Shown piece after piece: positions 1-64,000 of a DNA stretch of 64,000 nucleotides. Position numbers and translations under genes: made by a program. The stretch is from assembly GCA_964466575.1 (NCBI GenBank), contig CAYXNP010000003.1, positions 21,543-85,542 on the forward strand, in the 5' to 3' direction. The notes under the pieces were generated by a model, which made no database searches, was not told where the DNA came from, and saw only the letters and a program-made list of their open reading frames with translations. This DNA is from Candidatus Woesearchaeota archaeon (GTDB lineage Archaea; Nanobdellota; Nanobdellia; Pacearchaeales; GW2011-AR1). Position 1 is the first letter of the stretch. The number at the start of each line of letters is the position of its first letter.

Positions 1-1
1 C

Positions 2-259
2 ATTAATAGGATCATCTTTTTCATACCCACGAAATTCTGGACAACCAACACGATCAAATACAGCAAGGTGTCTGCTTGATAACCAACCTTTCTTTTGAGA
101 TATTAAATATACCCAGTTATATTTTATTCTTTCTTTCCCTAAACTGACTTTTCCTGTACTTCCAAGATTTTCATTTAGTTCATGAACGAGATCCTCCAAC
201 ATCTCTCTGTGCCTTTGAATAGTTTCACAATTGGATTTTACAACTTTTACTTCAACCAT
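2..259 (-). CDS. hypothetical protein, truncated by window start (visible N-terminus MVEVKVVKSNCETIQRHREMLEDL...)
   Basis: Hand translation of the minus strand from ATG 259-257 stays open to the window edge. It is absent from the ORF track because it has no stop. Confidence 0.4.
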   Translation of the reverse strand, partial: MVEVKVVKSNCETIQRHREMLEDLVHELNENLGSTGKVSLGKERIKYNWVYLISQKKGWLSSRHLAVFDRVGCPEFRGYEKDDPIN

Positions 260-480
260 ATCTTTTTATAGAAAACTAAGCTATTTAAATGTTTAATTTG
301 TTACTACTTTAAAATTAATAATAGGTTCTTCCTAACTTAATGACTTAAATTTAGGAAATCTCAGGGAGCGTTTAACCAATAAATTCTAAGAAAAATTGTT
401 AAAAATATACTAAAAAACACGAAATGGATTTTCGTCGATAAAACGAAAAAACTATGTGCAATTATTAACCTTAGGTAACA

Positions 481-552
481 CGCCCCCACGAGGAATTGAA
501 CCTCGATTATGCGGACCGCAACCACATGTTCTATCCATTAAACTAAAGGGGC
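481..552 (-). tRNA. tRNA-Arg (anticodon GCG)
   Basis: The reverse complement folds as a cloverleaf: acceptor GCCCCTT/TGGGGGC, T-arm CGAGG-TTCAATT-CCTCG, anticodon loop TTGCGGT. One acceptor mismatch. Confidence 0.75.
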
Positions 553-585
553 TATATATAATAGGAGAAAGAAGTTTTTAAGTTT

Positions 586-1185
586 TTAAATTTCATCTAT
601 CATTGAAATCGCGTCGTGAATTGATTTGTAATCGCAAATGTCTTCTGGAGAGAACCAGTGTTGGATTTCGTGCTCGGCTTCTTCAGCGTTGCCTGAAGCA
701 TGAATTAAATTTTTGACAGCGCGTTTTTTCATGTTTGCTAAATCAGGCGAGTCGATTGAAAAGTCTCCGCGAATTGTTCCTGGCTCTGCGAATGCAGGGA
801 CCGTTGAGCCGATAATTTTTCTAACCATTTTTATTGCATGCAATCCCTCGACGACAATTTTTACTATTGGGCCAGAAGTCATAAAATTTAAAAGCCATTC
901 CCTAACCATTTTTCCAATTTCATACAAATCTTCTGTTCCATAATCTTCTTTTAATGTCGATTGAATATTAAATTCTTCATAACTTTTTTTTGTGTTTCGT
1001 CCGAGGTTAGTTATCCATTCTTTATCTTTAGGATAATGCGCATCCATTTGTTTTTTCGTCGGCTGAACCATTTGCAGCGCAACAATTTTTAATTCCCGAG
1101 ATTCAAAACGTTTTATCACATCGCCAATCAAACCGCGTTTCACTCCATCAGGTTTAATCAACACCAATGTTCTTTCAGTTTCCAT
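586..1185 (-). CDS. ndk: nucleoside diphosphate kinase
   Basis: ERTLVLIKPDGVKRGLIGDVIKRFE and NLIHASGNAEEAEHEIQHWF motifs. It carries an internal insertion relative to the classical ~150-aa NDK. Confidence 0.85.
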   Translation of the reverse strand: METERTLVLIKPDGVKRGLIGDVIKRFESRELKIVALQMVQPTKKQMDAHYPKDKEWITNLGRNTKKSYEEFNIQSTLKEDYGTEDLYEIGKMVREWLLNFMTSGPIVKIVVEGLHAIKMVRKIIGSTVPAFAEPGTIRGDFSIDSPDLANMKKRAVKNLIHASGNAEEAEHEIQHWFSPEDICDYKSIHDAISMIDEI

Positions 1186-1357
1186 GAAAACTTTTTGAGA
1201 AGGATGTTTATAAAACTTTTTATTTTTAATTTTTAATTGTCGTCGATGAATTTCTTCAAAAGAAGATTATAGATTACAAAAAATGAAAAAAGAATAGGGT
1301 TGTTGGAAAAAAGAAATATTTATAAAGGACAAATCTTTATCTTAAATATTAAAAGGT

Positions 1358-3373: not shown

Positions 3374-4765
3374 TTGTTAATTATGGAAATTGATTTAAAT
3401 GAAGTTATGATTGGTGATTTACATTTGCATTCGAAATATTCCAGAGCAACGTCGATTTATTTGAGTTTTGAAAATTTAGTTAAGTGGGCAAAGATTAAGG
3501 GAATTAATTTATTAGGTACTGGAGATTTTACTCATCCTATTTGGTTTGAAGAGATAAAGAAGTTGGAAAATAATGGCAAAGGGATTTATTTCTTTGATGG
3601 TTTTCCTTTTGTTATTACAGGCGAGATTTCGTTTATTTATACGCAGGAAACATACAACAAATCGCGTTTAGATTCAGATTCCCACCACCACTCCCCAACC
3701 AACTCGCGACTTCACTCCACCACCATCGCGCGAGAAACCCCAAACGTGAAATCGCTCGCCCACCCGAGTGATAGGGAATTTACTGAATCTAAACGCTCGT
3801 TAGAAAGAAAAGGCAGGCGTGTTCATTTGAATGTTTTAGTGCCGAATGTTGAAGTTGCAGAGAAGATTAATTCTTATTTGGATACTAAAGGCAGAAGAGA
3901 TTATGACGGCAGGCCGATTTTTAAGATTTCCTGTGAAGAATTCGTTAGAGAGATGAAGAATATTGACGATAAAATTGAAATTATTCCTGCGCATATTTGG
4001 ACGCCCTGGTTTAGTATGTTTGGGAGCAAGTCAGGTTTTGATTCATTTAAGGAATGTTTTGGAGAAATGAGTGAGAAGGTTTATGCGATTGAAACTGGTA
4101 TGAGCAGTGATCCTGAAATGAACTGGCGTATTGGAGAACTGCATAATAAATCAATTGTTAGTTTTTCAGATAGCCATAGTTTTTGGCCGTTTCGTTTAGG
4201 ACGGGAGGCGACTATTTTTAAGAAGTTTGATTCTTATGATGAACTTGTTAGACAAATTAGAAAAAATGATTTTATTGGTACAATAGAAACAGATCCGGCT
4301 TATGGCAAGTATCATTATGATGGCCATAGGAATTGTAGTTTTTCATGTTCTTTTGAGAAAACTAAAAAATTAAATGGGCTTTGTCCAAAATGCGGAAAAC
4401 CATTGGTGATTGGCGTTGATTATCGTGTTGAGGAATTGGCAACTAATAAAATTGGTTTTAGGCCTCAATGTGCAAAACCTTTTTTTAAATTACTTCCTTT
4501 GCATGAAATTATTGTTTTAGCTAGTGGAGGAAGATTAGAAAGTAATTCAACATGGAATATTTATAATGATTTGATTTCAAAATTTGAAAATGAATTTAAT
4601 ATTTTGTTGAAAGTTTCTAAACCAGAATTTTTTAATAAAAATGTCGACGATAAACTTGTTGAATTGATTTTAAAAAATCGTGAAGGAAAGATTTATGTTA
4701 AGCCAGGTTATGATGGAGAGTATGGTGTTGCTGAACTTGGAGAAAAACAGGCGACGCTGGTTTGA
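3374..4765 (+). CDS. endonuclease Q-like PHP-domain nuclease carrying an in-frame repeat insertion
   Basis: GDLHLHSKYSRA, GTGDFTHP, RRVHLNVLVP, PAHIWTPWF, SFSDSHS..RLGRE, DPAYGKYHYDG, CPKCGKPL and GYDGEYG are collinear with archaeal EndoQ. ATG at 3383 is an alternative start. Confidence 0.8.
   Translation: MLIMEIDLNEVMIGDLHLHSKYSRATSIYLSFENLVKWAKIKGINLLGTGDFTHPIWFEEIKKLENNGKGIYFFDGFPFVITGEISFIYTQETYNKSRLDSDSHHHSPTNSRLHSTTIARETPNVKSLAHPSDREFTESKRSLERKGRRVHLNVLVPNVEVAEKINSYLDTKGRRDYDGRPIFKISCEEFVREMKNIDDKIEIIPAHIWTPWFSMFGSKSGFDSFKECFGEMSEKVYAIETGMSSDPEMNWRIGELHNKSIVSFSDSHSFWPFRLGREATIFKKFDSYDELVRQIRKNDFIGTIETDPAYGKYHYDGHRNCSFSCSFEKTKKLNGLCPKCGKPLVIGVDYRVEELATNKIGFRPQCAKPFFKLLPLHEIIVLASGGRLESNSTWNIYNDLISKFENEFNILLKVSKPEFFNKNVDDKLVELILKNREGKIYVKPGYDGEYGVAELGEKQATLV
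3662..3799. mobile_element. MITE-like insertion (family A core 3703-3758) lying in-frame inside the EndoQ-like gene
   Basis: Perfect 14-bp terminal inverted repeats: GCGTTTAGATTCAG (3664-3677) and CTGAATCTAAACGC (3783-3796). The C-tract-rich core is shared with other copies. Length is about 46 codons. Confidence 0.75.
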
Positions 4766-4770
4766 AGAGA

Positions 4771-4974
4771 ATTAGCTCGCTTCGCGAGATTATATGGCTA
4801 CGTATCCGCCTTGCGGCAGGATTTTTCGCTGAGAGGAAAATTAATGCAGAAAGATTTGAATATATTGTGGCTGATTTTATGGACAGGGTAATGAGATAAT
4901 TTATTTGCTTTTTGGAGCTGCTCGCGCCCACGCTTTGTTATTAATATTTAAGATTGTCAAAACGTAAACGCTCG
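4771..4974. repeat. composite repeat: family F module (about 4775-4850) plus family B copy (4921-4974)
   Basis: The F part aligns with 9843-9956. The B part, CTCGCGCCCACGCTTTGTTATTAATA..TTGTCAAAACGTAAACGCTCG, recurs at 12710, 47572 and 62320 (reverse complement). Confidence 0.7.
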
Positions 4975-5084
4975 TCTCTTATTTTGATAAATTTGTAATG
5001 AGCGTCAGAAGTTTTCTTTCCGCATTTTGGGCAATCTGTTTTTAAAGTGTAAGAATTACAATAAGAGCATTTTTTTAATTTCAT
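4941..5084 (-). CDS. nop10: H/ACA RNP protein Nop10 (47 aa, below the ORF-track cutoff)
   Basis: MKLKKCSYCNSYTLKTDCPKCGKKTSDAH.. matches the Nop10 zinc ribbon. Its ATG overlaps the stop of the upstream NUDIX gene (ATGA). The last ~11 codons lie inside repeat family B. Confidence 0.7.
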   Translation of the reverse strand: MKLKKCSYCNSYTLKTDCPKCGKKTSDAHYKFIKIRDERLRFDNLKY

Positions 5085-7919: not shown

Positions 7920-8282
7920 TTAGGCTGCGTTATGATATTTTTTGAGTTTTCTTAATTGAGCGAAAACTCTGTCTTTTTCTCTCATTGATTTTTTATCTTG
8001 TTTGTTTTTATCAAAATGAGTTTTAATGCGATTGAGTTTGTCTTCGACGTTTTTTAAATCTGGATTAATATAAGATTTGTTTTCTTTTAAAATTTTAGAT
8101 ATTTTTTTGTCATATTCAGATGGATGAATTCCTTCTTTACGAAGAGCTTCACCGATTTTTTCAGAAGTTAAACCAGATTTTGCTAAGTCAAGGATTTTAT
8201 TTTCGAATATTTTTTGTGTGACTTTCACTGATTTTATTTCTTTTTCCTTTATTTTTTTGGGTGTTTCTGCTTTTTTTGGCAT
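7920..8282 (-). CDS. rps15: 30S ribosomal protein S15 (uS15)
   Basis: GLTSEKIGEALRKEGIHPS and a C-terminal ..LRKLKKYH pattern typical of archaeal S15/S13e. Confidence 0.85.
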   Translation of the reverse strand: MPKKAETPKKIKEKEIKSVKVTQKIFENKILDLAKSGLTSEKIGEALRKEGIHPSEYDKKISKILKENKSYINPDLKNVEDKLNRIKTHFDKNKQDKKSMREKDRVFAQLRKLKKYHNAA

Positions 8283-8327
8283 GTTTTATGGAGTTGGAAT
8301 TGGTTTTTAAAGTTTGTGATACAATAA

Positions 8328-8339
8328 GTTTTAAAAATA
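8328..8339 (+). promoter_or_regulatory. putative BRE/TATA box for tRNA-Gln
   Basis: GTTTTAAAAATA is centred about 27 nt upstream of the tRNA 5' end. Similar (A/C)TTTTAAA(A/C) boxes precede tRNA-Thr and tRNA-Met. Confidence 0.4.
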
Positions 8340-8360
8340 CAAATACGTAGAGTTTGTTAT

Positions 8361-8477
8361 AGCCCCATAGTTTAGTGGTCAAGAATACGGCCCTTTGAAA
8401 GTAAGATGAGGATATTTTTAATTTCTCATTAGGAAAGAAGAAAGGCTGTGACCCCGGTTCGAATCCGGGTGGGGCTA
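8361..8477 (+). tRNA. tRNA-Gln (anticodon TTG) with a 44-nt intron (8399-8442) at the canonical 37/38 position
   Basis: Acceptor AGCCCCA/TGGGGCT, T-arm CCCGG-TTCGAAT-CCGGG. The anticodon stem CGGCC/GGCTG is split by the intron. Confidence 0.8.
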
Positions 8478-8529
8478 TATTATTTTGTATGATATAAATC
8501 TTAATAAATAAACATTCTTTGTTTTTTAG

Positions 8530-9204
8530 ATGATTCAAAGAGACGAGTTTGGAAGAGAGTTTACTATTGTTAATGAGGGAGAGGGTTTTGTTATTGCTCA
8601 TGGCAAAGCTCGGAATTTTACTTATTGTGATGATAAAAGTCCCTTTGGACAAAGAATTTCTATTCCAACATTTTATATTTTTAAACCTCATGAAGGACAT
8701 CCTCTCGAAGTTTCTCATATTGGCGAAGGACAAATAAATGTTTGGCCTCATGAAGAAAGAATATCTGATAATCCAAGAATGCCTGCAAGAGTAGAAGAGG
8801 ATAGAATTTCACATGATCTTGCAACATTTATGTTGGTGCCTTATGCTGTTAAAGATATTGGAAGTAAGACTAAATTGTTTGACACTTTTGAAGATGGATT
8901 TCGTCGCAAGGATGGAAAGGGTCAGCCGGTTTCTTTATTGTATGTTGAACACGGAATGGGTATTAGCAGACAAAGTACTCCTTATGTTTCTCAAGTTTTG
9001 CCAACCCAAGTTACGTATCATTTTTGGAGTTGGCTTGTTGAAAGAAAAGAAATTCATTCATTCAAGGGAAGTTTTCAGGGACAAGATTACGAAGGATTAA
9101 TTTCTATTCCTTACGATAAAGCGAGAAAAACTTTAACTCGTGTTACAAAAACATTAGAAAAGAGGTTTGATCAATCATTAAGACTTGATAGGGAAACTTT
9201 TTAA
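8530..9204 (+). CDS. hypothetical protein
   Basis: Long ORF with coding-like composition and no recognised domain. Confidence 0.5.
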   Translation: MIQRDEFGREFTIVNEGEGFVIAHGKARNFTYCDDKSPFGQRISIPTFYIFKPHEGHPLEVSHIGEGQINVWPHEERISDNPRMPARVEEDRISHDLATFMLVPYAVKDIGSKTKLFDTFEDGFRRKDGKGQPVSLLYVEHGMGISRQSTPYVSQVLPTQVTYHFWSWLVERKEIHSFKGSFQGQDYEGLISIPYDKARKTLTRVTKTLEKRFDQSLRLDRETF

Positions 9205-10013
9205 TATCTTTCTTTATATCTTCCTCTCGATTCTACTTTTCTTAGTTGTTCGAGAACCTTTGGATTTTTATATCCTTTAATAAATTCCTTAAACAAAATT
9301 TCCCAATGTTCGAAATGTTTTGCTTCTAAAGCTTGTTTTAGTAAATGCAAATCAACTGCTTTGTCTTCGAGTTTGTGAGAATGGAATCCGAGGCCGAAAT
9401 CTATGAAAAATATTTTGAAACTTTGGCTCGCTGTCGCTCGCTTATTTGGAATTGTTAATGCCGAAGAATTTTTTATGTAGTGTGATACTTCTGAAGGTGG
9501 TGTTGTGATTGATTGAGGATTATCAACCAAAATCATATTGCTTGTTGTCAAGTCGCCGTGGATAATATTTTCATTGTGGAGTTTAGATATTTCTTTTCCA
9601 AGTTCATTGCATATTTTGATTTGATCTTCTAAAGAAAATTCGTTTAAGTGAGTTGATAGTTTTTTGCCGTCGATGAATTCCAATTTTATTTTAGAATTTT
9701 CAACTTTAATGACTTTTGGAGAATGAATAATTTTGTTTACTTTTTCCAAGAGTTTTGCTTCTGACTTTGTCCGGCGTTTTCTTATTCTTTCGTCGAGGAT
9801 TTGGAGGCGATAGGATTTTGGAATACGGTTTTTTATTATGAATTTGCTCGCTTCGCTCGGAATTGATGGCTCCAAATCGGGCTCCGCCACGATTTTTCGC
9901 TGAGAAGATTTTGAAGCCAAAGATTTTTTAGAGCGGGGCGAGACTTTTTTTTGAGATTGAACTAAAAATATTTTTGCTTCTGCTCCTTGTTGAATTAGTT
10001 TTTGGGCTGACAT
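9201..10013 (-). CDS. bud32: Bud32/KEOPS-type Ser/Thr kinase with two in-frame repeat-derived insertions
   Basis: QQGAEAKIF, IIHGDLTTSNMIL, FIDFGLG, VDLHLLKQALEAKH and VESRGRY. The start is set at MSAQKL (ATG 10013), directly after the stop of the upstream toxin gene. Confidence 0.8.
   Translation of the reverse strand: MSAQKLIQQGAEAKIFLVQSQKKVSPRSKKSLASKSSQRKIVAEPDLEPSIPSEASKFIIKNRIPKSYRLQILDERIRKRRTKSEAKLLEKVNKIIHSPKVIKVENSKIKLEFIDGKKLSTHLNEFSLEDQIKICNELGKEISKLHNENIIHGDLTTSNMILVDNPQSITTPPSEVSHYIKNSSALTIPNKRATASQSFKIFFIDFGLGFHSHKLEDKAVDLHLLKQALEAKHFEHWEILFKEFIKGYKNPKVLEQLRKVESRGRYKERY
9417..9520. repeat. repeat-derived in-frame insertion 2 in bud32 (between NMILVD and KIFFIDFG)
   Basis: About 35 extra codons at a position where Bud32 homologues run continuously. 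It contains the GCTCGCTGTCGCTCGC module. Confidence 0.55.
9843..9956. repeat. family F repeat lying in-frame in bud32 (insertion 1, between the glycine loop and IIKNRIPKSYR)
   Basis: TTTGCTCGCTTCGCTCGGAATTGATGGCTCC..GATTTTTCGCTGAGAAGA aligns with intergenic 4775-4850. Confidence 0.65.
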
Positions 10014-12622: not shown

Positions 12623-12872
12623 TGTGAATCAGTATCTCCAAACAGAGAAAAAATAGTTCTATAAATTAATCCTCCAAAGAATACCAATAGAATAAAATTC
12701 ACTCCTCTACTCGCGCCCACGTTTTGTTATTAATATTAAAAATTGTCAAAACATAAACGCTCGCTTAACGCTCGTCGAATTTATATTAATTATTAACAAA
12801 AATCTGCGAATGTAATGAGCAGCAAATTTCTTCCCTTGGAATGACAAAGACTCATCGGAGATACTCGTGAAT
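12623..12872. repeat. repeat block containing family B copy (12710-12763), with short inverted termini AGTATCTCC/GGAGATACT
   Basis: The B core is nearly identical to 4921-4974. 9-bp inverted termini sit at 12631-12639 and 12857-12865. Confidence 0.5.
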
Positions 12873-13649: not shown

Positions 13650-13662
13650 TGTTAAATTTTGG

Positions 13663-14028
13663 TTAGAACTTAATTTTATTCCTTATTATTTTGTATTGAG
13701 AAATTGCTATTCCGGAAATTCCTATTAAAAATCCGAGTAATAAACCAAATAGGTTGTGATTGTTTGTTACGATTCTTTGAATTGAAATTATTGTTAAAAT
13801 TGCTATTGATAAAATGAAATAAGGAATTTTCCATGATTTGTTTTGGTCTATGAAAAACCATACTATGTAAAGGAGAAAAATTGTCCAAGCAATGTGGGAT
13901 GAAGCGTCGAATAGAATATCTTTTCCAAAAATGAACATTGGAAGGTATTTGAAAATAATTAATCCAATCGCGATTACAATTCCTGCGACGAGGATTTTTT
14001 TAATTTGTTCAACCTCTTTTTTTTGCAT
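13663..14028 (-). CDS. small integral membrane protein
   Basis: Four predicted hydrophobic helices. Confidence 0.5.
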   Translation of the reverse strand: MQKKEVEQIKKILVAGIVIAIGLIIFKYLPMFIFGKDILFDASSHIAWTIFLLYIVWFFIDQNKSWKIPYFILSIAILTIISIQRIVTNNHNLFGLLLGFLIGISGIAISQYKIIRNKIKF

Positions 14029-50214: not shown

Positions 50215-50368
50215 GAGTGTGTCTAAAGAATAATCTTTTTATATATCTTTTTCCGACGTGATTTCGTACTCCCACCTACCATCCCCCAACCACCCACCCA
50301 GATAGTTATTGAATTAACGAAATCACGTCGGTGAATTAAATAATTCTTCTGAATTATTAGACACATTC
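50215..50368. mobile_element. family C MITE (154 bp), TIR GAGTGTGTCTAA../..TTAGACACATTC
   Basis: The inner hairpin CGACGTGATTTCG..CGAAATCACGTCG encloses a C-tract loop, CTCCCACCTACCATCCCCCAACCACCCACCC. Confidence 0.75.
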
Positions 50369-51963: not shown

Positions 51964-52032
51964 TAAGTTTGCATAAGTATAGAGTATATAAAGATTTATT
52001 TTGTTAATTATATTGTTTTCGCGAGGTAGAAT

Positions 52033-52103
52033 TTGCTTCGCTCCGAAGTCACTCAGAGATTGATGGTTCACAAATCCTGCTTGCGCTTGGATTTGTTCGC
52101 TGG
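52033..52103. repeat. family H repeat (GCTCCGAAGTCACTC..ATTGATGGTTCACAAATCCTGCTTGCGCTTGGATTTGTTCG)
   Basis: Aligns with 62951-63011. Confidence 0.6.
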
Positions 52104-52189: not shown

Positions 52190-52209
52190 CTCTTACTTTT
52201 CTTAATTTT

Positions 52210-52281
52210 GGCTGCATAGCTCAGCGTTAGAGTATCTGTCTCATGAGCAGAGGGTCCCGGGTTAAACTCCCGGTGTAGCCA
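52210..52281 (+). tRNA. tRNA with CAT anticodon (elongator Met or Ile2)
   Basis: Acceptor GGCTGCA/TGTAGCC, anticodon arm TCTGT-CTCATGA-GCAGA, T-arm CCGGG-TTAAACT-CCCGG. Confidence 0.8.
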
Positions 52282-52971
52282 TTAATTACTCTTTGATTGA
52301 ATGAAATTTTGATATTTCTTTTCGTGTTTAGGGTTTACAAATCCAATTTTTTCATGAAAAAGAATTAAATTGTCTATACCATTAAATTGAAATCTATATT
52401 TATCTTGAACATTCCATCTTAATTCTTGTTTTATTCTTTTACATTTATACACATGTCCTTGTAATCCTTCCTCTGATAGAAAATTATATATTTGTTCAAT
52501 TAATTTCTTATGAATAACATGAGCTTCTAATCTTGGATAGAGTTTATTAGGATTTCTTGTTAAAACTAATGAACCATCTGTTGCAAAAAAGCCTTGAATT
52601 ATGAATTTCAATAAATTATCTTTATAAAATTTTTCTGGAATAATTAAGTCTTTTCCTTTCTTTCCTATGGGAAATCCAAAAGAATTTATTTTATTAAATA
52701 AGATTTTATCACAAAAGTTTAATTCAATTGTTCCCTTTTTTGGTCTTTGTTTAATGTTAATATTTTTTCCTCTTAAGGATATTGTTAAAGGTAATACTAT
52801 TTCTTTAAAGAATTCTTGATCATCATAATAATTACAAGTTATTGATATGGCATATCCTATGCTTCCATATTTACTTTTGTAATGAGATAGACACCCATCA
52901 CCCAGCATTATTCCATAAAATAGAGCAAATTTCTCATCGTCGTTAAGTTTTGTTAAGAGATTATTTTCCAC
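52282..52971 (-). CDS. free-standing double-motif LAGLIDADG homing endonuclease
   Basis: Two LAGLIDADG motifs: FALFYGIMLGDGCL and IIQGFFATDGSLV. Its stop codon abuts the 3' end of the tRNA. Confidence 0.8.
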   Translation of the reverse strand: MENNLLTKLNDDEKFALFYGIMLGDGCLSHYKSKYGSIGYAISITCNYYDDQEFFKEIVLPLTISLRGKNINIKQRPKKGTIELNFCDKILFNKINSFGFPIGKKGKDLIIPEKFYKDNLLKFIIQGFFATDGSLVLTRNPNKLYPRLEAHVIHKKLIEQIYNFLSEEGLQGHVYKCKRIKQELRWNVQDKYRFQFNGIDNLILFHEKIGFVNPKHEKKYQNFIQSKSN

Positions 52972-53115
52972 ATTACTATAAACTAAAATAGATTTATTAA
53001 TCTTTTTAATGGGGGAGTGTGGGAGTTAAAATCTCCCCGGAGACATTTATACTATCTTTCAGATTGCATAAATATTTGGGTTTAAATGAGGTTGGAATAA
53101 AAGTATATTTTCATA

Positions 53116-54557: not shown

Positions 54558-54776
54558 TTTCCTCCTTACATTTTTATGTATTAAAGGCTAGGTTAATTAG
54601 GGCTTAGAATTCTTTTATTGTTTGATGAATAAAATGTGATAGAATTAAAAGCCCAGTATGTTAATACTTGGCTTTTGAAATCACAGATACGAATTTCTTA
54701 TAGGAACTAAAACTCATATGTGATTTACTCATGTTTTTTAGAAGAGGTTGGAGTTTAAATAATTTTTGGAAATGCA

Positions 54777-54909
54777 GGCTACATCCCAAATTAAGTTTTC
54801 TTGAGAGATTTTGTTTGTTATCATATGCCCACCCAAACTGCGTCCCACCCTAATACCAAACAAAATATCTGATTTAATTAAATTGATTTTTGTAATGTGG
54901 GATGTAGCC
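54777..54909. mobile_element. family D MITE (133 bp), second copy
   Basis: Same length, TIRs and core as 22138-22270. Confidence 0.8.
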
Positions 54910-54959
54910 GGAAATGCAATGTTCAATATACAACTTAACATTTGCGTTTGTTTCACTCG

Positions 54960-55260
54960 CGATATCATTAGCGGCTCGCGACCCCACTCGAACAAATTTT
55001 TGAGGCGACACTCATGAAATCGCTTGTCAAAACTGACTTCGTCAATGAAAACCACCAGCGGGTTTCTCAATTCGCAAGCCCACTCGCTTTTGGTTTTGAG
55101 GCGAAGCTCGTGAACATTGCTCACACTTCCTGCAACCAGACTTCGTCAAGTTTTTCGCTCAAAGAAATTGTTAATGTTAAAAACATCTTGAGTGTTGAGG
55201 ATTATTATTTTTGTGATTCACGAACGTTAGTGAGTGCTAATGTTAAATTGAAAGTTGACT
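54960..55260. repeat. mosaic repeat block: family A core (54975-55026), a degenerate A-like copy (about 55070-55125), a GACTTCGTCAAG..AAAGAAATTGTTAATG module and a CACGAACG..AGTGAGTGCTA module
   Basis: The modules recur at 32870-32960, 18190-18290, 38420-38470 and 20740-20770. Confidence 0.65.
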
Positions 55261-56856: not shown

Positions 56857-57378
56857 TCAAGTTCTAACCCAATCAACTTCATAATAAGTTATTGAACCTT
56901 CTTCGTCGAGGATTGCGAGGAGAAGTTTCTTTTTTGTTGAATGTGCGACTCGATTTTTCGCTGAGAATTCGTGCCAGGATTGTTTGTTGTTTTCGTGGTC
57001 GACAAAACAAACCCATTTTGCGTGTTCATTTCCAGGACGTTTGCCTTTATTGTAAATCCTGAAATCCGCGCCGAATTTTAAGGCGGTTTTAACTATGTAG
57101 CCTTTTTCGCGAAGGTCCTTGAAGACAGGATATTTTAAAGGAAATTTTTTATCAATTCTTTTAAGTTTATTCATTAATTCTTTTTGTGATATTTGCTTGT
57201 TTCTTGAATCTAATACTTCAAGTTTTCCATTTTCTGTTAAGAACATTGTTTCAGATAAAGAGTAAATGATTTTGTCTCCTTTTTTTTCGCCGAACGCACT
57301 TTTTGTTAAAAGAGAGTGGGCGTTGCTATCATTGCTTGTAATGCTTTTTCCGACAAGGTATGCTTGTATTTTTTCCAT
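56857..57378 (-). CDS. endA: tRNA-splicing endonuclease (EndA)
   Basis: YPVFKDLREKGYIVKTALKFGADFRIYNKG...HAKW motif. The start is moved to ATG 57378. Confidence 0.85.
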   Translation of the reverse strand: MEKIQAYLVGKSITSNDSNAHSLLTKSAFGEKKGDKIIYSLSETMFLTENGKLEVLDSRNKQISQKELMNKLKRIDKKFPLKYPVFKDLREKGYIVKTALKFGADFRIYNKGKRPGNEHAKWVCFVDHENNKQSWHEFSAKNRVAHSTKKKLLLAILDEEGSITYYEVDWVRT

Positions 57379-57677
57379 TATTTGTATTTTTACATCAAGA
57401 TGCAGAAGCATCGATGTTTGCCAAACTTCGTTTAATTATAAATTAAGGAAAGAAAGATATTTAAAGTTTGACTTATATCTATTTGAGTAAAATGAATACT
57501 AACAATAATAAATTTTATATGGAATTTAACAAGTTGTTAGTTGGGATTCTCTCCTGCAAGATTTTGCAATAATTTTTGTCTGACCTTGCGTTATTAATTT
57601 TTAAGTAAGGTTGGACTCATTATTGACTATGTCGTCGGTTAGAGAATTCTATATAAAATTGTAAGGAGGAAAATAAA

Positions 57678-57960: not shown

Positions 57961-60900
57961 ATGAAAAAAGCAAAGAAAGTTGTAAATGTAAAAGGAAAAG
58001 AAGATAAATTAGATTTTTCTAAAATTGAATCGAAATGGCAGAAGTCTTGGGAAGCTAAAAAAGTGTTTGAAGTGAAAGAATCTTCGAAGAAGAAATTTTA
58101 TATTTTGGATATGTTTCCTTATCCTTCTGGAGCGGGTTTGCATATGGGGCACGCTTTTGTTTTTTCGCTTGGAGATATTTATGCGAGATTCAAGAGGCTT
58201 CAAGGTTACAATGTTCTTTATCCGATTGGTTACGATTCTTTAGGTTTGCCTGCAGAGAATGCTGCAATAAAATCTAAAACTCCTCCGAAAAAGTATACAG
58301 AGGATTCTATAAAGAATTTTATGAAACAACAGAAAGCAATGGGGTGGAGTTATGATTGGAGCAGATTAGTGAATACCAGCGACGCTGAATATTATAAATG
58401 GGACCAATGGATTTTCTTGAAAATGCTGGAGAAAGGAATTGCTTATAGAAAAAAATCTGCGGTGAATTATTGCAGGAAGTGCGACACGGTTTTGGCGAAC
58501 GAGCAGGTTATTAATGGAAAGTGCTGGCGTCATGAAGATGTTAATGTTGAAATTAAACATCTTGAGCAGTGGTTTTTTAAGATTACAGATTATGCTGAGG
58601 AATTGTTAGATGGTTTGAATAAAATTGATTGGCCTGAGAAAGCTAAGAAGCTGCAAAAGAATTGGATTGGAAAATCTTACGGAACGGAAGTTGACTTTGA
58701 GATTGAAAATAATGGGAAGGAGAACAAGATTTCAAATGTTGTGATTGTCCATGGATGTCCCTCTAATGTAGAGAAGGCGATGAATGAAAAAACGAGAACT
58801 TATGATAAACATTGGATGCCTTGGCTGAAAAGAGAATTAGGTAAAAATGGAATTAAAACAGAAATTCCTTTAATGCAAACCCCTTGGAAACCTAATTATT
58901 TTGAATGGAAAAAAGAATTTGACAAATTAAATATAAATGAAAATACCATTTTGATTGGACATAGTTGTGGTGGAGCTTTTTTAGTGAGGTGGCTTGATGA
59001 AACAAAGAAAAGAATTAAGAAATTGATTTTAGTTTCTCCTGGGAAATCTGGAAGGGAAGGTAGAAAAGTTTTAACAGATTTTTATGGAAATAAAACTATA
59101 CATGGAATTGAGAGATTTGTGAAAGAACAAATAGTTGTTTATATTTCCGACGATGATATCCCTTATCATATTCCAAGTGCTTATGAATATCAAAAAGAAT
59201 TGAATGCAAGAGTTGTTCGTTTTGACAAGGGATATGGACATTTCACTATTGAAGGCATGGGGACTGAAGAATTTCCAGAATTGCTTGATGAAGTTTTAGG
59301 AAAAAAATCTTGGCCGATATTTACAACTCGCATCGATACAATTTATGGGGTTACTTTTATGGTTGTAAGCGCTCAGCATTCAAATTTGATGGAGATTGTA
59401 ACTGACAGACAGAAGAAAGAAGTTGAAAAGTTTTTAAAAAAAATTAAATCTGTTTCTGAAAAAGAAATGGATGAGCTTGAGAAAGAAGGAGTTTTTACTG
59501 GAAGCTACGCGATAAATCCTTTGACAAAAGACAAAGTTCCGATTTATGCGGGGAATTTTGTCGTCGCTGATTATGGCTCTGGAATGGTTATGGCTGTGCC
59601 TGGCCACGACCAAAGAGATTATGAGTTTGCTGTAAAATATAATTTACCTATTAAAAAAGTTATTGAGCCGCTTGATAGAGAATTCAATTTGAAAGATGAA
59701 GGAAGAGCGTTTGAAGGAAAAGGACGTTTGATTAATTCAAGGACATATAATAATCTGGACAGCGAAAACGCGAAAGAAAATATTACAAAAGATTTGCAAA
59801 AGAAAAGGATTGGCAGGAAGCAGATTCAGTTTCGGTTGAAGGATTGGCTTGTGTCGAGGCAGAGATATTGGGGGACGCCGATTCCAATTATTTATTGTGA
59901 TAAGTGCGGTATTGTCGCTGTTTCTGAAAAAGAGCTGCCTGTTAAACTTCCAGAAAAAGTAAAATTTGGCAAAGGGAATCCGATTGCGACTTCAAAATCT
60001 TTTGTTGAAGTTAAATGTCCAAAGTGTCATGGAAAGGCCAGAAGGGAAACAGATACGATGGACACTTTTGTTAATTCGTCTTGGTATTATTTGCGTTATG
60101 CAGATTCCAAAAATAAAAATAAAATCTTCGACGAGAAGAAAGCGAATTATTGGTGTCCAATTGACCAGTATATTGGCGGGCCAGAACATGTTACAATGCA
60201 TTTGATTTATATTAGGTTTTATACAAAGTTTTTGCGAGATCTCGGACTTTTAAAGTTTGACGAGCCTGCTTTGAAATATTTTACGCAAGGTTTAGTTTAT
60301 GGTTCAGACGGAGAAAAAATGTCAAAGTCTAAAGGAAATATTGTTGAACCTCTTGATATGATTAAGAAATATGGGGCTGATACCTTGAGATTGGCGCTCA
60401 TATCATTAGCATCGCCGGATAAGAATTTTTCTTGGGATGAAAAAATTGTTATAGGAAGCAATAAATTTTTGATTAATGTTTTTAATTATTTTTCAAAAGT
60501 TGAAAATGGAAAAACTTCTAAGAAAATTGAGAGCAAGTTGAATAAAGCAATAAAAGAAATTACTGATGATGTTGAAAATTTTAGGCATTATCTTGCGATT
60601 ATTAAAATAAAGCAATTGTTTAGTTATTTAGTTGATGAAAAAATCAGTAAAGACGATGCAGGCAAGTTTTTGAAACTTTTGCATATTTATTGCCCATTTA
60701 TTACAGAAGAGCTTTGGCATAATTTAGGTAATAAATCATTTATTAGTTTAGAGATTTGGCCAATTTGCGACGAGAAAAAGATAGATGAGAAACTTGAAAG
60801 ACAGGAGGAACAAATTGATAATTTAATTAGAGATGTGAATAATATTCTGAAGATTCTTGAGTCTAAGGGAGAAAAGAAAAATAGCGTTAAGGTTTTTGCG

Positions 60901-61053
60901 ATTCCGAATGAAGTTGATTTGTATAAGAGCGAAATCGAAATAATAAAAAAAAGAGTTAGTTTGGATGTTGAAGTTTTAGATGTTAAGGATGCGAAGAAGA
61001 TTGGCAAAGTGATTAAGGCGAAGCCGGGCAAGCCAGGAATTTATTTGGAGTGA
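57961..61053 (+). CDS. leuS: leucyl-tRNA synthetase (bacterial type) carrying an inserted alpha/beta serine-hydrolase domain
   Basis: HMGH, WIGKSYGTEVDF, TTRIDTIYGVTF, AVPGHDQRDYEF, RQRYWGTPIP and KMSKSKGN are collinear with bacterial LeuRS. Confidence 0.95.
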   Translation: MKKAKKVVNVKGKEDKLDFSKIESKWQKSWEAKKVFEVKESSKKKFYILDMFPYPSGAGLHMGHAFVFSLGDIYARFKRLQGYNVLYPIGYDSLGLPAENAAIKSKTPPKKYTEDSIKNFMKQQKAMGWSYDWSRLVNTSDAEYYKWDQWIFLKMLEKGIAYRKKSAVNYCRKCDTVLANEQVINGKCWRHEDVNVEIKHLEQWFFKITDYAEELLDGLNKIDWPEKAKKLQKNWIGKSYGTEVDFEIENNGKENKISNVVIVHGCPSNVEKAMNEKTRTYDKHWMPWLKRELGKNGIKTEIPLMQTPWKPNYFEWKKEFDKLNINENTILIGHSCGGAFLVRWLDETKKRIKKLILVSPGKSGREGRKVLTDFYGNKTIHGIERFVKEQIVVYISDDDIPYHIPSAYEYQKELNARVVRFDKGYGHFTIEGMGTEEFPELLDEVLGKKSWPIFTTRIDTIYGVTFMVVSAQHSNLMEIVTDRQKKEVEKFLKKIKSVSEKEMDELEKEGVFTGSYAINPLTKDKVPIYAGNFVVADYGSGMVMAVPGHDQRDYEFAVKYNLPIKKVIEPLDREFNLKDEGRAFEGKGRLINSRTYNNLDSENAKENITKDLQKKRIGRKQIQFRLKDWLVSRQRYWGTPIPIIYCDKCGIVAVSEKELPVKLPEKVKFGKGNPIATSKSFVEVKCPKCHGKARRETDTMDTFVNSSWYYLRYADSKNKNKIFDEKKANYWCPIDQYIGGPEHVTMHLIYIRFYTKFLRDLGLLKFDEPALKYFTQGLVYGSDGEKMSKSKGNIVEPLDMIKKYGADTLRLALISLASPDKNFSWDEKIVIGSNKFLINVFNYFSKVENGKTSKKIESKLNKAIKEITDDVENFRHYLAIIKIKQLFSYLVDEKISKDDAGKFLKLLHIYCPFITEELWHNLGNKSFISLEIWPICDEKKIDEKLERQEEQIDNLIRDVNNILKILESKGEKKNSVKVFAIPNEVDLYKSEIEIIKKRVSLDVEVLDVKDAKKIGKVIKAKPGKPGIYLE
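58735..59310 (+). other. RBBP9/YdeN-type serine-hydrolase domain inserted in-frame in LeuRS (about aa 259-450)
   Basis: VVIVHG, HWMPWLKREL, GHSCGG (GxSxG), LILVSPG, ISDDDIPY and GYGHF appear in the order typical of this family. Boundaries are approximate. Confidence 0.7.
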
Positions 61054-61088
61054 AACACCATTGGTTGCTTTCGCAACTTAGGAAAAAG

Positions 61089-61140
61089 AGTGAACTAGAT
61101 TTAATATTGATAATCGTGATAAGTGCCGAATTTAGATTAA
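61089..61140. repeat. family E repeat
   Basis: AGTGAACTAGATTTAATATTGATAATCGTGATAAG..AATTTAGATTAA lies just 3' of leuS. Confidence 0.5.
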
Positions 61141-61178
61141 CCTAATTTTTTAGGAGGGATTTTATTTGGAATGAATTT

Positions 61179-61309
61179 GCTCGCAAGTTCGTTATTCCCA
61201 CCGCCGCTCCCCCAACTCACGACCCCACTCATCCTCCATCGCTCACCCCCAAACGTGAAGTCGCTCGCCACCCACCCGAACGTTAGTTAATAAAACGAAC
61301 ATTGCTCGC
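61179..61309. mobile_element. MITE-like element with TIR GCAAGTTCGTT/AACGAACATTGC and a C-tract-rich family A-like core (61216-61267)
   Basis: The termini and core (CTCACGACCCCACTC..CGTGAAGTCGCTCG followed by CCACCCACCC) were read directly. Confidence 0.6.
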
Positions 61310-61980: not shown

Positions 61981-62456
61981 TGTAAGCAACTGAAATATGT
62001 TAATAGCTAACCGAAGAATTACTTCAACTCGCGCCCACACTCGAACTCATTATTCTTCAAAATTGTCTACTCGTGTAAACTCTTGCACTTCGTTCGAAAA
62101 TTAATTACGACTTCAAATCTGTAAGGCACTGGGGGCACCAAGGTTCCCCTTACACTAACCTCTCCTTTGAGTTAGCTTGACAATCAACCTCCATTAAACT
62201 TGCAGGATTTTCCGCCGAGAAAAGATGATAACAACATCTAATCTAAGGGAAAGTGTGTGAGAGAAAACCGCAGGTTGTCTTCATTCTTGATTAACAATTT
62301 CTTAGTGAAGAGCCTAAGCCGAGCGTTTACGTTTTGACCAATAGATAAATAATAACAAAACGTGGGCGCGAGTTGAAGCAAGGCTCGAAGCAATTAATTT
62401 TTGCGAAGCAAGAAAATTTACACATAAAAAAGGGGACATATGTCATGGTCTTATAC
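61981..62456. mobile_element. 476-bp composite repeat element flanked by a perfect 16-bp direct repeat (AAGATAGGGAATAGTG at 61965-61980 and 62457-62472)
   Basis: The duplication was read directly. The element contains a B-like module (62028-), the 22297-22335-type module, a B copy (62320-62372, reverse complement) and a right end homologous to the 18067 TIR. Confidence 0.8.
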
Positions 62457-62507
62457 AAGATAGGGAATAGTGGAAAGGTTTTTAATATAGTTCTTTGATG
62501 TTACCTG

Positions 62508-62909
62508 ATGAAATATAAAATTACGAGAAAAAAGGCAAGACATCTTGGTGCTATCAATCATACTAGGTCACAAGCTAATTGGGTGAGGGTTCATGAGTGG
62601 TTGATGGGAACACAGGAAGGGCACAAGGTTGGGTATGAAAAGGCATTTTATGATTATTATTATGGGAATGACAATCATCTAAATGGTGGAGGGCCCTCTG
62701 CTGAATTTAGAGACCATGTTTCTGAAAGGGGTTTAACTTGGGAACAAGAGCATAATGTTTGGTATTATTATACTCGATTAGAGCCTGCGTTAAGATTGGA
62801 ATATTTGAGAACAGGGCAAGAAAGATGGGCATTTACTAAAATTGAAAAATGGGCATCAGAAGGTTTGTTGAAATATAGGCCTCTACCAGAATTTGGGATG
62901 ACTTTTTGA
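62508..62909 (+). CDS. hypothetical protein
   Basis: ORF only; W/Y/H/G-rich. Confidence 0.45.
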   Translation: MKYKITRKKARHLGAINHTRSQANWVRVHEWLMGTQEGHKVGYEKAFYDYYYGNDNHLNGGGPSAEFRDHVSERGLTWEQEHNVWYYYTRLEPALRLEYLRTGQERWAFTKIEKWASEGLLKYRPLPEFGMTF

Positions 62910-62950
62910 TTTTGGATATAATAAGTCCATCTAGGATCTTAACATCTTTA

Positions 62951-63011
62951 TAATTAATTTGCCTGCTCCAAAGTCGCAAGTTATTGATGCTCATAAATCC
63001 CGCTTCGCTTG
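62951..63011. repeat. family H repeat, second copy
   Basis: Aligns with 52033-52103. Confidence 0.6.
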
Positions 63012-63160
63012 GATTTCTTCGTAAAAACGGTTTAAGACGAAAATCCTGACAGGGTCGGATTTGAGTTATTTATTCATGAGCCTGTGAATGCAAATGTTAA
63101 GTTAGCAATTTGACTTTACAGAATATAAATCTTTAAATAATCTTATTTCTATTTGTTGAT

Positions 63161-63409
63161 ATGGGAAGTTCAGTTGAAGAAATTGTTATTGGAGATTTAT
63201 TTCCTGAGTTGAAAGCTCCTAAAATTAAAGATTTTGGAATTCATATTGATTCATTAGCAGATGATGTCGCATCTGAATTAAAATATGCATTTCGTAATTA
63301 TCTTACTGGCACCGCTATAAATCATGCATCTGATGAGGGTAGAGATGTGGTGTGTGTTGATGATATAAATTGGGCGTATAGACAACTTGTTCCTGAAAAG
63401 AGAGATTGA
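63161..63409 (+). CDS. small hypothetical protein, possibly histone-fold-like
   Basis: ..DDVASELKYAFRNYLTGTAINHASDEGRDVVCVDDINWAYRQL loosely fits the histone-fold helix2-loop-helix3 pattern. Weak. Confidence 0.3.
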   Translation: MGSSVEEIVIGDLFPELKAPKIKDFGIHIDSLADDVASELKYAFRNYLTGTAINHASDEGRDVVCVDDINWAYRQLVPEKRD

Positions 63410-64000
63410 TTATTCTACTATTCCTTTTATTCTTCTCACGCCAGCAGCGACAGATTCTTCTTTTGTTATTTTGAATTTACCGATTTCACTTGTGTTTGAG
63501 ACATGAGGGCCTGTGCATATTTCTTTGCTGAAATTACCGACGCTGAAAACAGTAACTTTGTTTGGATATTTGCTTCCGAATTCTGCTTGCGCGCCTGATT
63601 TGAGAGCTTCTTTTAATGAGAGCTCTTCTGATGTGACAGGAAGTGCTTGTTTTATTTTTTCATTGACAAGAGTTTCAATTTTATTTTTTTCTTCGTCGGT
63701 AAGTTTTCTGTCAAAGTTAAAATCGAAACGCAATCTTTCAGGAGTTATGTTAGAGCCTTTTTGCTTGACTTGTGGGCCGAGAACTTTTCTTAGAGATTCA
63801 TTAAGAAGATGAGTCGCTGTGTGGAGTTTTTTTGTTTTTTCGCTGTTATCTGATAAACCGGATTTGAATCTTCCAGCAGAAGATGTTTGTGAAAGTTTTT
63901 GATGATTATTAAGTTCATTTCTAAAATCGTGGTGGTTTACTAAGAATCCCTTTATTATCGCAAGTTCATCTATCATTTCAAGTGGGAAGCCATATGATTG
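63410..64000 (-). CDS. alaS: alanyl-tRNA synthetase, C-terminal part (editing domain); continues beyond the window end
   Basis: HTATHLLNESLRKVLGPQVKQKGSNITPERLRFDF, GAQAEFGSKYP, FSKEICTGPHV and GVRRIKGI. The frame stays open to position 64000. Confidence 0.85.
   Translation of the reverse strand, partial: QSYGFPLEMIDELAIIKGFLVNHHDFRNELNNHQKLSQTSSAGRFKSGLSDNSEKTKKLHTATHLLNESLRKVLGPQVKQKGSNITPERLRFDFNFDRKLTDEEKNKIETLVNEKIKQALPVTSEELSLKEALKSGAQAEFGSKYPNKVTVFSVGNFSKEICTGPHVSNTSEIGKFKITKEESVAAGVRRIKGIVE

Follow-up and report, generated by a model that had tools for sequence, protein, structure and literature searches.

Archaea of the DPANN group have genomes of about 1 Mb and are thought to be poor in mobile DNA. 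Against this background, what are the numerous short interspersed repeats found in a 64,000-nt stretch from a Candidatus Woesearchaeota archaeon (contig CAYXNP010000003.1, positions 21,543–85,542), and how did they come to lie between, beside and even within its genes? This whole stretch is termed the window hereafter and is numbered from its first base. On balance, we favor the interpretation that its repeat load is non-autonomous mobile DNA of two kinds, namely small hairpin units, which would act as a folded single strand, and inverted-repeat elements. The window has a G+C content of 28%–38% and encodes the archaeal markers TFIIB, SRP54, FtsY, S3Ae, S8e, GINS, the tRNA splicing endonuclease EndA, tRNase Z, GlyRS, and LeuRS, in addition to eight tRNA genes, three of which have long introns. 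The best named relatives of its endonuclease Q (EndoQ) are Candidatus Pacearchaeota proteins, indicating that the host is a DPANN archaeon. An earlier inspection of the letters without database searches (the sequence-only reading) had reported that no transposase or integrase gene accompanies the repeats, apart from a LAGLIDADG gene. Profile searches with Pfam and NCBIfam agreed: none of the window's approximately 50 open reading frames (ORFs) contains a transposase or integrase domain, and the LAGLIDADG ORF at 52282–52908 is the sole mobile-type gene.

In the window, self-BLASTN detected 39 distinct pairs of repeats (E≤1e-3) that together occupy 3,090 bases, and a repeat finder recovered the same families. 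The two conserved ends of family A were counted against dinucleotide shuffles: GTGAAATCGCTCG with up to two mismatches was observed 12 times against 0.66 expected, and CTCGCGACCCCACTC with up to three mismatches 13 times against 0.20 expected, and neither count was equalled in any of 100 shuffles. A covariance model, first built from 34 diverse copies, retrieved 20 units in the window, comprising all ten family A and six family B coordinates of the sequence-only reading plus four others at 24071, 33061 (reverse strand), 47641, and 55071. A second model, based on the structure of the G-rich strand, returned the identical 20 units. The families listed in that reading are thus real where it had placed them and stand well above chance. 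Families C, D, E, and H and the inverted repeat at 32838 (17 nt) also held, whereas family F is weak (76% identity, E 5e-4). Families A and B, which had been kept apart, belong to one superfamily, since a single covariance model retrieves both. The units are 46–63 nt in length, and the other families span 70–265 nt. The statement that nearly every spacer longer than 150 bp contains a repeat proved too strong: within-window repeats account for 10–12 of 29 spacers, rising to about half once elements known via other genomes are added.

All copies of the unit follow a common layout, CTC-stem1-YYY-stem2...stem2'-AAA-stem1'-TCG, with limits running from CTCG to CTCG(G). The G-rich strand folds into a closing C-G pair, tandem G-A/A-G pairs, a 10-bp stem consisting of four Watson–Crick pairs, three conserved U-G/T-G wobbles and three further Watson–Crick pairs, and a free apical part. 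In the G-rich reading, the "CCC/AAA bubble" of the other strand resolves into three pairs, U-G or U-A, and its CTC/TCG flanks turn into the tandem G-A beside the closing C-G. The 11-pair helix is paired in 99.7% of 374 cells on the G-rich strand, compared with 76.5% on the C-rich strand. Eight of the helix pairs have changed on both sides among copies, and the three middle pairs are U-G in 79 and U-A in 22 of 102 cells. Stem 2, the inner 3 bp that were unconstrained by selection, pairs in 93% of cells and shows A-U replaced by G-C in nine sequences. A strict pattern allowing any self-complementary stem 1 gave 95 matches in the collected DNA versus about 1.7 in shuffles; besides GCGA, stem 1 occurs as GCAT, ACAT, GCAA, GGCA, GTAA, and GCAC. 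Folding of the G-rich strand as RNA gave z-scores of –2.7 and –3.7. Given that the helix forms on the G-rich strand, the C-tract "cores" are the non-folding face of the other strand's hairpin, and the description of A and B as an AT-rich stem around a C-tract core had to be given up. The suggestion that the repeats might be a structured nucleic acid is, by contrast, supported: covariation and strand-specific wobble pairing point to a folded single strand. Searches of Rfam at gathering and permissive thresholds returned tRNAs only and no match to the unit. Readings of the unit as a C/D-box, H/ACA, or kink-turn motif were rejected, the box motifs being absent or tRNA-derived.

The repeats do not share one architecture, as had been proposed, but fall into at least two kinds: the small hairpin units, which lack a target duplication, and classical inverted-repeat elements, which have one. 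Coordinates, strands, and composition of the elements are as follows.
3651–3809, forward strand: composite insert in the EndoQ gene (3383–4765), 159 nt and in frame; outer palindrome CGCGTTTAGATTCAG...CTGAATCTAAACGCTCG with an A unit (3703–3758) in its center; a covariance-model hit.
4769–4837, forward strand: family F, the least secure; partner at 9840–9908 inside a RIO-kinase ORF.
4919–4976, forward strand: B-type unit (4921–4974) between the 3' ends of the EndoQ and NUDIX genes; 44–48 bits in the covariance model.
12710–12763, forward strand: B-type unit lying between the divergent genes SRP54 and ORF 12909; found by the repeat finder, BLASTN, and the covariance model.
18136–18261, forward strand: head-to-tail pair of a degenerate B-type unit (18136–18190) and an A unit (18210–18261), found by BLASTN and the covariance model; a composite of B, 17 nt, and A also occurs in loci L076, L044, L027, L047, L051, and L072.
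20473–20787, no strand assigned: 315-nt block with a CATTCGTTCCAAAGTCAC motif, which is related to families 32838 and H, and a hairpin whose loop is GAACGAAGTGA.
21518–21604, forward strand: family E; further copies at 22364–22432 (extra to those of the sequence-only reading), 41141–41210, and 61080–61162; 73%–79% identity, E 1e-6 to 1.6e-4.
22131–22271, forward strand: family D, 141 nt; its terminal inverted repeats are GGGCTACAT...ATGTAGCC, and its core contains a C-tract; DNA fold z –2.1; 22112–22270 and 54748–54909 are 85% identical by BLASTN (E 4e-43).
22887–23043, forward strand: tRNA-Thr-linked element composed of a spacer, a partial T-arm, a unit (22969–23020), and a 19-nt duplicate of the tRNA 3' end (23024–23042); the G-rich strand of the unit is on the forward strand, which is the tRNA sense, and L076 has the same structure.
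24057–24199, reverse strand: tRNA-Val-linked element with a terminator-like hairpin, a partial T-arm, a variant unit (24071–24124, GGCA:TGCC), and a 3'-end duplicate (24057–24068).
26924–27018, forward strand: long A form (95 nt; unit 26938–26994) at the start of a 1972-codon ORF; 94% identical to 48541–48635.
32836–33114, forward strand: element between GCYCGCTCCAAAGTCGC inverted repeats (32838 and 33048–33070) with an A unit (32870–32921); overlaps the reverse unit 33061–33114.
33172–33314, forward strand: two partial 5' copies of tRNA-Leu before the intact gene (33336–33422); the second (33230–33314) has an A unit (33247–33298) at the D-loop position.
33423–33687, forward strand: region 3' of tRNA-Leu with, in this order, a hairpin, a GAGAACC..GGTTC palindrome, an outer variant unit enclosing the unit 33514–33577, and duplicates at 33594–33609 and, older, 33672–33687.
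39575–39682, reverse strand: element at the intron-containing tRNA 39683–39823; it contains the palindrome GAGAACCCGACGGGTTCGA, a hairpin variant whose stem is GTTG:CAAC, and CCCGGTCTCCGCTTTTT, a duplicate of 17 nt.
47507–47771, forward strand: family C with nested B-type (47572–47625) and A-like (47641–47694, GCAA:TTGC) units; the copy at 50211–50363 is un-nested; DNA fold z –2.7.
48541–48635, forward strand: long A form (unit 48555–48611) in the GlyRS ORF, read through in frame and linking a 56-codon N-terminal domain to GlyRS.
52030–52100, forward strand: family H with GCTCCGAAGTCAC; second copy at 62956–63022; local alignment score 62 versus a random maximum of 29.
53003–53048, forward strand: orphan 3' piece from a tRNA-Met of another type, with a decayed hairpin end GAGTGTGGGAG before it.
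54953–55123, forward strand: A unit (54975–55026) and degenerate unit (55071–55123); the flanks of the A unit are 84% identical to 32848–32940.
61194–61279, forward strand: long A form (unit 61216–61267) 3' of LeuRS; 77% identical to 3678–3767.
62028–62458, no strand assigned: composite of a forward unit (62028–62085), a reverse unit (62320–62372), and a segment (62387–62458) inverted relative to 18066–18133; a relative of about 300 nt is inserted in L076 at window 21618–21673.

Comparison with related DNA argues that these elements have moved. The L-numbered loci are related DPANN genome or metagenome contigs compared with the window, among them strain contigs that overlap it at 2%–5% divergence. 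Five presence/absence differences between such near-identical strains coincide with elements, and insertion polymorphism was among the checks that the sequence-only reading had called for. The window, L014, and L015 all have the 159-nt EndoQ insert, which is precisely missing from L013 (empty site CAGGA|AAAAGG); its target duplication is at most 2 nt. The B unit at 4919–4976 is present in the window and L015; L013 and L014 have ATT instead, with no target duplication. The family D element at 22131–22271 is absent from L076, which has a single base in its place, and the 315-nt block at 20473–20787 is absent from L076 as well. At window position 16410, where the window itself has an empty site, L076 contains an element of 205 nt that has GGCTCTGTTGAA inverted repeats and is accompanied by a 9-bp target duplication (TATGAAGGC). 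Furthermore, the GGCTNTGTTGAA inverted-repeat family shows a 7-bp target duplication (TAATTTA) in L042 compared with L038. Family D and the GGCTNTGTTGAA family, at 140–205 nt with terminal inverted repeats and no ORF, are ordinary MITEs (miniature inverted-repeat transposable elements). For the hairpin units, the same sequence recurs in unrelated surroundings: a Cbf5-type 56-nt unit is 85%–95% identical in three loci with flanks of 37%–57% identity, which fixes the unit limits at CTCG...CTCG(G). Strain presence/absence, the 7- and 9-bp duplications, and the same unit in unrelated flanks together support the earlier suggestion of non-autonomous mobile DNA.

The units also lie within and against one another. 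In family C, nested B and A-like units occupy one copy only (47507–47771, an 89% identical copy of which lies in the unrelated locus L024) and are missing from the other, bearing out the nesting of modules noted before. A hairpin unit sits in the center of the GGCTNTGTTGAA-family element in L076; the L042 copy is without it. Units are often arranged head to tail with gaps of 0–19 nt, and in L057 a second unit stands flush against the first, directly after GCTCGG, and is missing from the otherwise identical L069. Judged from these positions, the common denominator would be insertion into the center of a palindrome, i.e., the loop of a potential hairpin. Related DPANN genomes also contain IS200-like elements whose end hairpins have either 3-nt loops (L082) or insertions of about 30 nt, CGAGCG...GCGAGCGG, in the loop (L083, L007, and L084); the transposase's own binding hairpins are thus invaded too.

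Inside genes, the units respect the reading frame. Eighteen of 103 pattern-defined copies (17%) lie within long open frames, eight in sense and ten in antisense. Read-through was seen in 17 cases and a split-gene candidate, defined as an upstream frame ending in the unit with a different downstream frame starting in it, in none. The host genes include those of EndoQ, Cbf5, aIF5B, an Ogt-like methyltransferase, and the GlyRS N-terminus. Cbf5 has one or two tandem units (57 or 114 nt), aIF5B has up to three in tandem, and the length difference in Ogt is 54 nt. EndoQ contains inserts of 159, 159, 84, and 99 nt at one codon boundary in four lineages, with none in about 110 of the 120 best homologues, and the alignment with the solved Pyrococcus EndoQ (PfuEndoQ) breaks exactly at the insert of the window. 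All in-gene inserts have lengths that are multiples of three and are free of stops, as expected if they were translated and not if they were spliced out. The predicted peptides are NSRLHSTTIARETPNVKSLAHPS for the 53-residue insert of EndoQ and CSRPHSVIGKDNLSSVKSL for Cbf5. Frame conservation therefore makes it most likely that the in-gene inserts are translated as extra loops, similar to the Rickettsia palindromic elements. At the GlyRS locus, the segment joined in frame via a unit to the GlyRS N-terminus (48359–48540, forward strand) encodes a 56-residue domain with a KxGKxYYYL...GKV...YLGK motif, which may resemble the N-terminal DNA-binding segment of some transposases.

A second regular setting is the 3' side of tRNA genes. 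Of the 22 copies located no more than 200 nt from a tRNA gene, 19 lie downstream with the G-rich folding strand in the tRNA sense. The order is constant: the intact tRNA; a short, often terminator-like hairpin and a spacer; the 5' side of a partial T-arm; the unit; and the rest of the T-arm with the acceptor 3' strand. The duplicated 3' end comprises 8–24 nt identical to the gene end, sometimes plus up to 10 nt of downstream flank, and the unit interrupts the pseudo T-arm at 48/49, 53/54, 58/59, or 60/61. This architecture was seen for at least 12 tRNA identities. In the window it is found at four of the eight tRNAs, two of them with variant stems (GGCA:TGCC and GTTG:CAAC) outside the search pattern, and among tRNAs not chosen by the pattern it occurs at about one quarter (8 of about 30 in our tally). 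Among the loci inspected, no tRNA 3' duplicate without a unit was seen. The mirror image exists 5' of tRNA-Leu in the window and L021, where a 5' fragment has a unit at the D-loop position. The orthologous tRNA-Arg locus is without an element in the window, whereas L014 has an element, a 12-nt duplication, and then the same downstream flank. The LAGLIDADG ORF lies on the opposite strand between tRNA-Met (52209–52282) and the orphan tRNA-Met-type fragment at 53003–53048, to be compared with the tRNA-Met locus of L030, and the interval 52282–53048 resembles a small insertion beside a tRNA gene, with an endonuclease gene as its cargo. Use of the unit as a guide RNA against the neighboring tRNA was rejected given that the insertion point within the T-arm copy is variable. 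One-step models of the end duplication, including a long variable target duplication, snap-back priming, att recombination, and insertion into existing pseudo-copies, each fit only part of the observations.

The units are also asymmetric between strands. The C-rich strand is on the forward strand, and hence the folding strand on the reverse, in 16 of the 20 units of the window (two-sided binomial p about 0.012), and this bias holds in convergent, divergent, and co-directional gene contexts, as the sequence-only reading had noticed for most copies. Three of the four minority-orientation units adjoin tRNA-Thr and tRNA-Leu. Approximately 70% of the coding sequence is on the forward strand as estimated from the gene map. 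The cumulative GC skew climbs steadily and is positive throughout, so the window is probably within one replichore. Locus L070, which continues the window's own genome with 100% identity over 63335–64000, adds one unit in the majority orientation.

Which enzyme might act on such strands? The transposase with matching ends that the sequence-only reading had proposed to search for is missing from the window, and the IS200-like ends in its relatives differ from the units. Using IS200/IS608 sequences as tblastn queries, we found Y1_Tnp genes in L046, L032 (frameshifted), and L007, which Pfam confirmed. More than 200 Y1 homologues were found, mostly on contigs shorter than 1.5 kb and assigned to Nanoarchaeota or Woesearchaeota where named, as expected for multicopy insertion sequence (IS) elements. 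L007 has a unit some 100 nt beyond its Y1 gene, outside the IS end. A 2026 preprint reports that, across 256 Nanobdellota proteomes, K07491, the REP-associated tyrosine transposase, is the only transposase orthologue with strict hits (10.64898/2026.05.13.725050). As the only transposase type seen in the clade, a Y1/HUH enzyme is the most economical candidate mobilizer, and an IS200-type enzyme acting on folded single strands may be what moves the units.

These observations enable us to propose a putative model. The first kind of element, the units of the A/B superfamily, would be recognized as a folded G-rich single strand and would come and go at sites without a fixed target duplication. They would favor the single-stranded loops of other hairpins, such as the centers of palindromic elements and the T- or D-loop positions of tRNA-gene fragments, and would also insert beside existing units, giving rise to the nested modular network. 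The second kind, family D and the GGCTNTGTTGAA family, would make target duplications of 7–9 bp and provide sites where the units can land. Inside genes, only in-frame and stop-free insertions would survive; beside tRNA genes, units would be placed in the tRNA sense within a duplicated T-arm and 3' end. Movement would be provided in trans by an IS200/IS605-type Y1 (HUH) transposase acting on single-stranded DNA, which would account for the strand bias.

Several observations weigh against this model. The strain differences could also be old alleles shuffled by recombination instead of recent jumps; the site of the B unit at 4919–4976 shows a swap for ATT and not a clean empty site; and the EndoQ inserts of L079 and L080 have their flanks in common, which makes that insert old. 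The outermost termini of the EndoQ insert in the window resemble those of L081. As to the fold, the covariation statistics for stem 1 are partly circular because the search pattern required complementarity. The C-rich strand and the units folded as DNA were no better than shuffles (z –0.1 to +0.5, except –2.5 for the 24071 variant), and three conserved wobbles plus tandem G-A are more RNA-like than DNA-hairpin-like. No convincing conserved target tetranucleotide or motif was found at the defined junctions and unit flanks. As to the enzyme, neither the window nor the adjoining 6 kb encodes a Y1 transposase; at four loci, Y1 genes were inspected for flanking units on both sides, as in RAYT systems, and none had them; and derivation of the units as miniature forms of IS200-like ends was likewise rejected, as the left-end and right-end motifs are unmatched in the window and the ends are unrelated in sequence. 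If the forward strand is the leading strand, the folding strand is mostly on the leading-strand template, the opposite of IS608-type insertion. Finally, the variable duplication of tRNA 3' ends (8–24 nt) is unexplained by peel-and-paste transposition.

The RNA-like character of the fold leads to the foremost alternative, in which the unit is a functional RNA motif made from the G-rich strand, serving tRNA 3' trailer processing, stability, or protein binding; its fold would serve the host and its spread would be secondary. A fold confined to one strand, with three G-U wobbles and tandem G-A as typical RNA features, fits this explanation, as do the tRNA-linked copies, which are always in the tRNA sense at a fixed short distance downstream, an arrangement that L006 and L012, from two species, have both kept at tRNA-Leu(UAA). 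Some copies also have promoter-like TTCTTAACAAAATATA motifs in front of them. However, the folding strand of most copies in the window is antisense to genes or outside them, the copies in ORFs take both orientations, and the T-arm insertion point shifts among four positions. The gain and loss of units between strains, their unrelated flanks, and the absence of any Rfam match also count against it, and we regard a host-serving RNA as unlikely.

We also considered a bolder version of the mobile-DNA explanation. The units could represent an undescribed archaeal mobile class, a folded single strand that homes to hairpin loops, including the T- and D-arms of tRNAs, and regenerates the tRNA end through a chemistry unlike that of described enzymes; the same class would be a standing source of new translated segments in essential DPANN proteins and might account for some of the "missing" tRNAs reported in Nanobdellota genomes. 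We put this forward only tentatively, as a doubtful though conceivable extension.

According to a further alternative, the tRNA-linked copies are att-site scars of small integrative elements, the hairpin being the recognition site of a site-specific recombinase and the other copies secondary insertions. The direct repeats of tRNA 3' ends (8–24 nt, sometimes reaching 10 nt beyond the gene) do flank inserted DNA in an att-like manner, and successive nested duplicates occur at tRNA-Leu and tRNA-Lys. Against this, the hairpin interrupts the duplicated T-arm rather than adjoining it. The orthologous tRNA-Arg locus with and without an insert has a swapped tRNA body, and the LAGLIDADG gene stands between tRNA-Met and an orphan 3' end of a different tRNA-Met with a hairpin remnant; nevertheless, no integrase is found in the window or among the proteins recurring across loci, and the supposed elements are just 90–190 nt. 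Linkage to at least 12 different tRNAs would need a new matching core each time, and no viral contig has the unit. We regard this alternative as rather improbable.

Archaeal tRNAs are known to have non-canonical introns in the D-loop and the T-loop, and the Cbf5 gene has an intron in Crenarchaeota. The presence of units at D- and T-loop positions and in Cbf5, together with one canonical bulge-helix-bulge motif in the EndoQ insert (3678/3779), could therefore recall introns of tRNA-like and protein transcripts cut by the splicing endonuclease (56857–57411). This is very improbable and was rejected: in a scan of all 103 copies, such motifs were no commoner at the borders of units than chance predicts (60 of 204 strand tests versus about 0.33 expected per test), the Cbf5 insert has none, use of the EndoQ motif would remove 98 nt and put the downstream codons out of frame, in-gene copies keep frame without stops (17 versus 0) in multiples of three, and the tRNA-linked copies lie in partial pseudo-copies beside intact genes.

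Returning to the units as mobile hairpins, we compared them with known systems; overall, they appear to resemble bacterial repetitive extragenic palindromic (REP) sequences or miniature derivatives of IS200/IS605 most, and, when in genes, the Rickettsia palindromic elements. REP sequences and the bacterial interspersed mosaic elements (BIMEs) built from them, with their REP-associated tyrosine transposases (RAYTs), are likewise short imperfect palindromes in hundreds of copies, with a conserved base, a variable top, strand-specific mismatches, and head-to-tail or inverted clusters, and the Y1 HUH enzyme family is present in this clade. The unit has the 10-bp imperfect stem expected of that group, but its host is archaeal, its invariant foot is CGA...GAG with tandem G-A in place of the 5' GTAG of REP, 17% of the units are inside ORFs, no unit-bracketed transposase gene was found, and tRNA linkage is not a REP trait. 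IS200/IS605 elements and their palindrome-associated miniature derivatives are similar in being hairpin-dependent and strand-specific, in lacking a fixed target duplication, in their seamless presence/absence and orientation bias, and IS200-like genes occur in related genomes; in contrast, the units consist of one hairpin instead of left and right ends, are unrelated to the IS ends found, and have no identified target tetranucleotide. The Rickettsia palindromic elements share with the units a palindromic form, a reduced genome, in-frame residence in conserved genes as well as non-coding DNA, and an unknown mobilizer, but the archaeal units are of unrelated sequence and much shorter, are read through in both orientations, and form tandem in-gene copies, with translation here deduced from frame.

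Classical MITEs and mosaic repeats (Correia, BOX, and Sulfolobus SM) match family D and the GGCTNTGTTGAA family, which have terminal inverted repeats, 140–205 nt, and no ORF, with 7–9-bp duplications in the GGCTNTGTTGAA family. The modular build of the window elements is like that of BOX and BIME. The A/B units differ in having no target duplication, their "ends" being the hairpin base and not true terminal inverted repeats. A census of prokaryotic MITEs placed a Woesearchaeon among the densest archaeal genomes with 105 per Mb (PMC11602168), so a high MITE load in the clade is not new. With 20 units in 64 kb, the density in the window is roughly threefold that of the census. As in tRNA-targeting integrative elements, the 3' part of the tRNA is duplicated, one tRNA is hit repeatedly, and the cargo is variable and includes a LAGLIDADG gene; unlike them, the inserts are just 90–190 nt, lack an integrase, and hold the hairpin inside the duplicated T-arm. 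In integron attC sites, too, a single strand folds with a conserved base below a variable top, and imperfect pairing makes the fold strand-selective, but no R''/R' (GTTRRRY) consensus, cassette arrays, or integron integrase were found, and the units lie among housekeeping genes. The literature searched holds no description of the unit, its strand-specific wobble helix, its clade-wide spread, its strict in-frame behavior within essential genes, or its regular coupling with duplicated tRNA ends.

Beyond the window, the family A pattern turned up 12 times in other species-level genomes, 11 in number and bearing the labels Woesearchaeota, Pacearchaeota, Nanoarchaeota, or "archaeon", and in 63 metagenome stretches. 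Run on related loci, the covariance models detected 33 units (115 kb) and a further 120 (442 kb), which makes 153 in 557 kb. No viral contig with the unit was found, and an origin from a virus or plasmid was rejected on this ground. A gene travelling with the units was also rejected: the 587 ORFs of the loci clustered into housekeeping families only. The density of about one unit per 3 kb, varying between co-existing strains and common to Pacearchaeota, Woesearchaeota, and Nanoarchaeota, makes the units ready strain-level markers for population studies. They also explain the oddly long EndoQ, Cbf5, aIF5B, and Ogt as well as spurious small ORFs, and can break assemblies and tRNA predictions. 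The strand-specific fold provides a defined substrate for the only known transposase type of the clade, and the regularity with which the unit is coupled to a duplicated T-arm and 3' end suggests a defined reaction at tRNA genes.

Several further features of the tRNA genes were observed. The tRNA-Arg(GCG) gene at 481–552 (reverse strand) and its counterpart in L014 (5381–5469) have the first 26 or so bases in common and differ in the anticodon stem, T-arm, and acceptor, with an intron in L014 only; the 3' two-thirds of the gene has thus been exchanged. Anticodon-loop introns of about 45–71 nt are found in the tRNAs at 8361–8477 (forward), 39842–39959 (reverse), and 39683–39823 (reverse). The 71-nt intron of the last has GAUGAGA...CUGA ends with a 5-bp closing stem, similar to a C/D box, and contains a GAGAACC..GGTTC hairpin as do spacers 3' of tRNAs. 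The palindromic motif AAATGCTTAAAATGCATTCATTCGCTACA is conserved before different tRNA genes in different species (L001, L011, and L034) and is probably a tRNA promoter element. Directly 3' of the intron-containing tRNA at 8361–8477 lies a gene without a family match (8530–9204, forward strand); at this position L014, a strain otherwise about 96% identical, has an unrelated gene on the other strand (13526–14146), which indicates a cargo-swap site beside the tRNA.

Among the remaining genes, L076 contains an 843-nt extra segment (7989–8832, equivalent to window position 15190) that encodes an S-adenosylmethionine (SAM)-methyltransferase-like protein between an amino-acid-kinase-family gene and ftsY, and the window is without it. 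The start of the GINS gene, including its ATG, is repeated at 19762–19824 and 19903–19965 as a tandem duplication with a 140-nt period. In the LeuRS gene (57961–61053, forward strand), a serine-hydrolase/alpha-beta-hydrolase domain (residues 282–440) is inserted before the editing domain.

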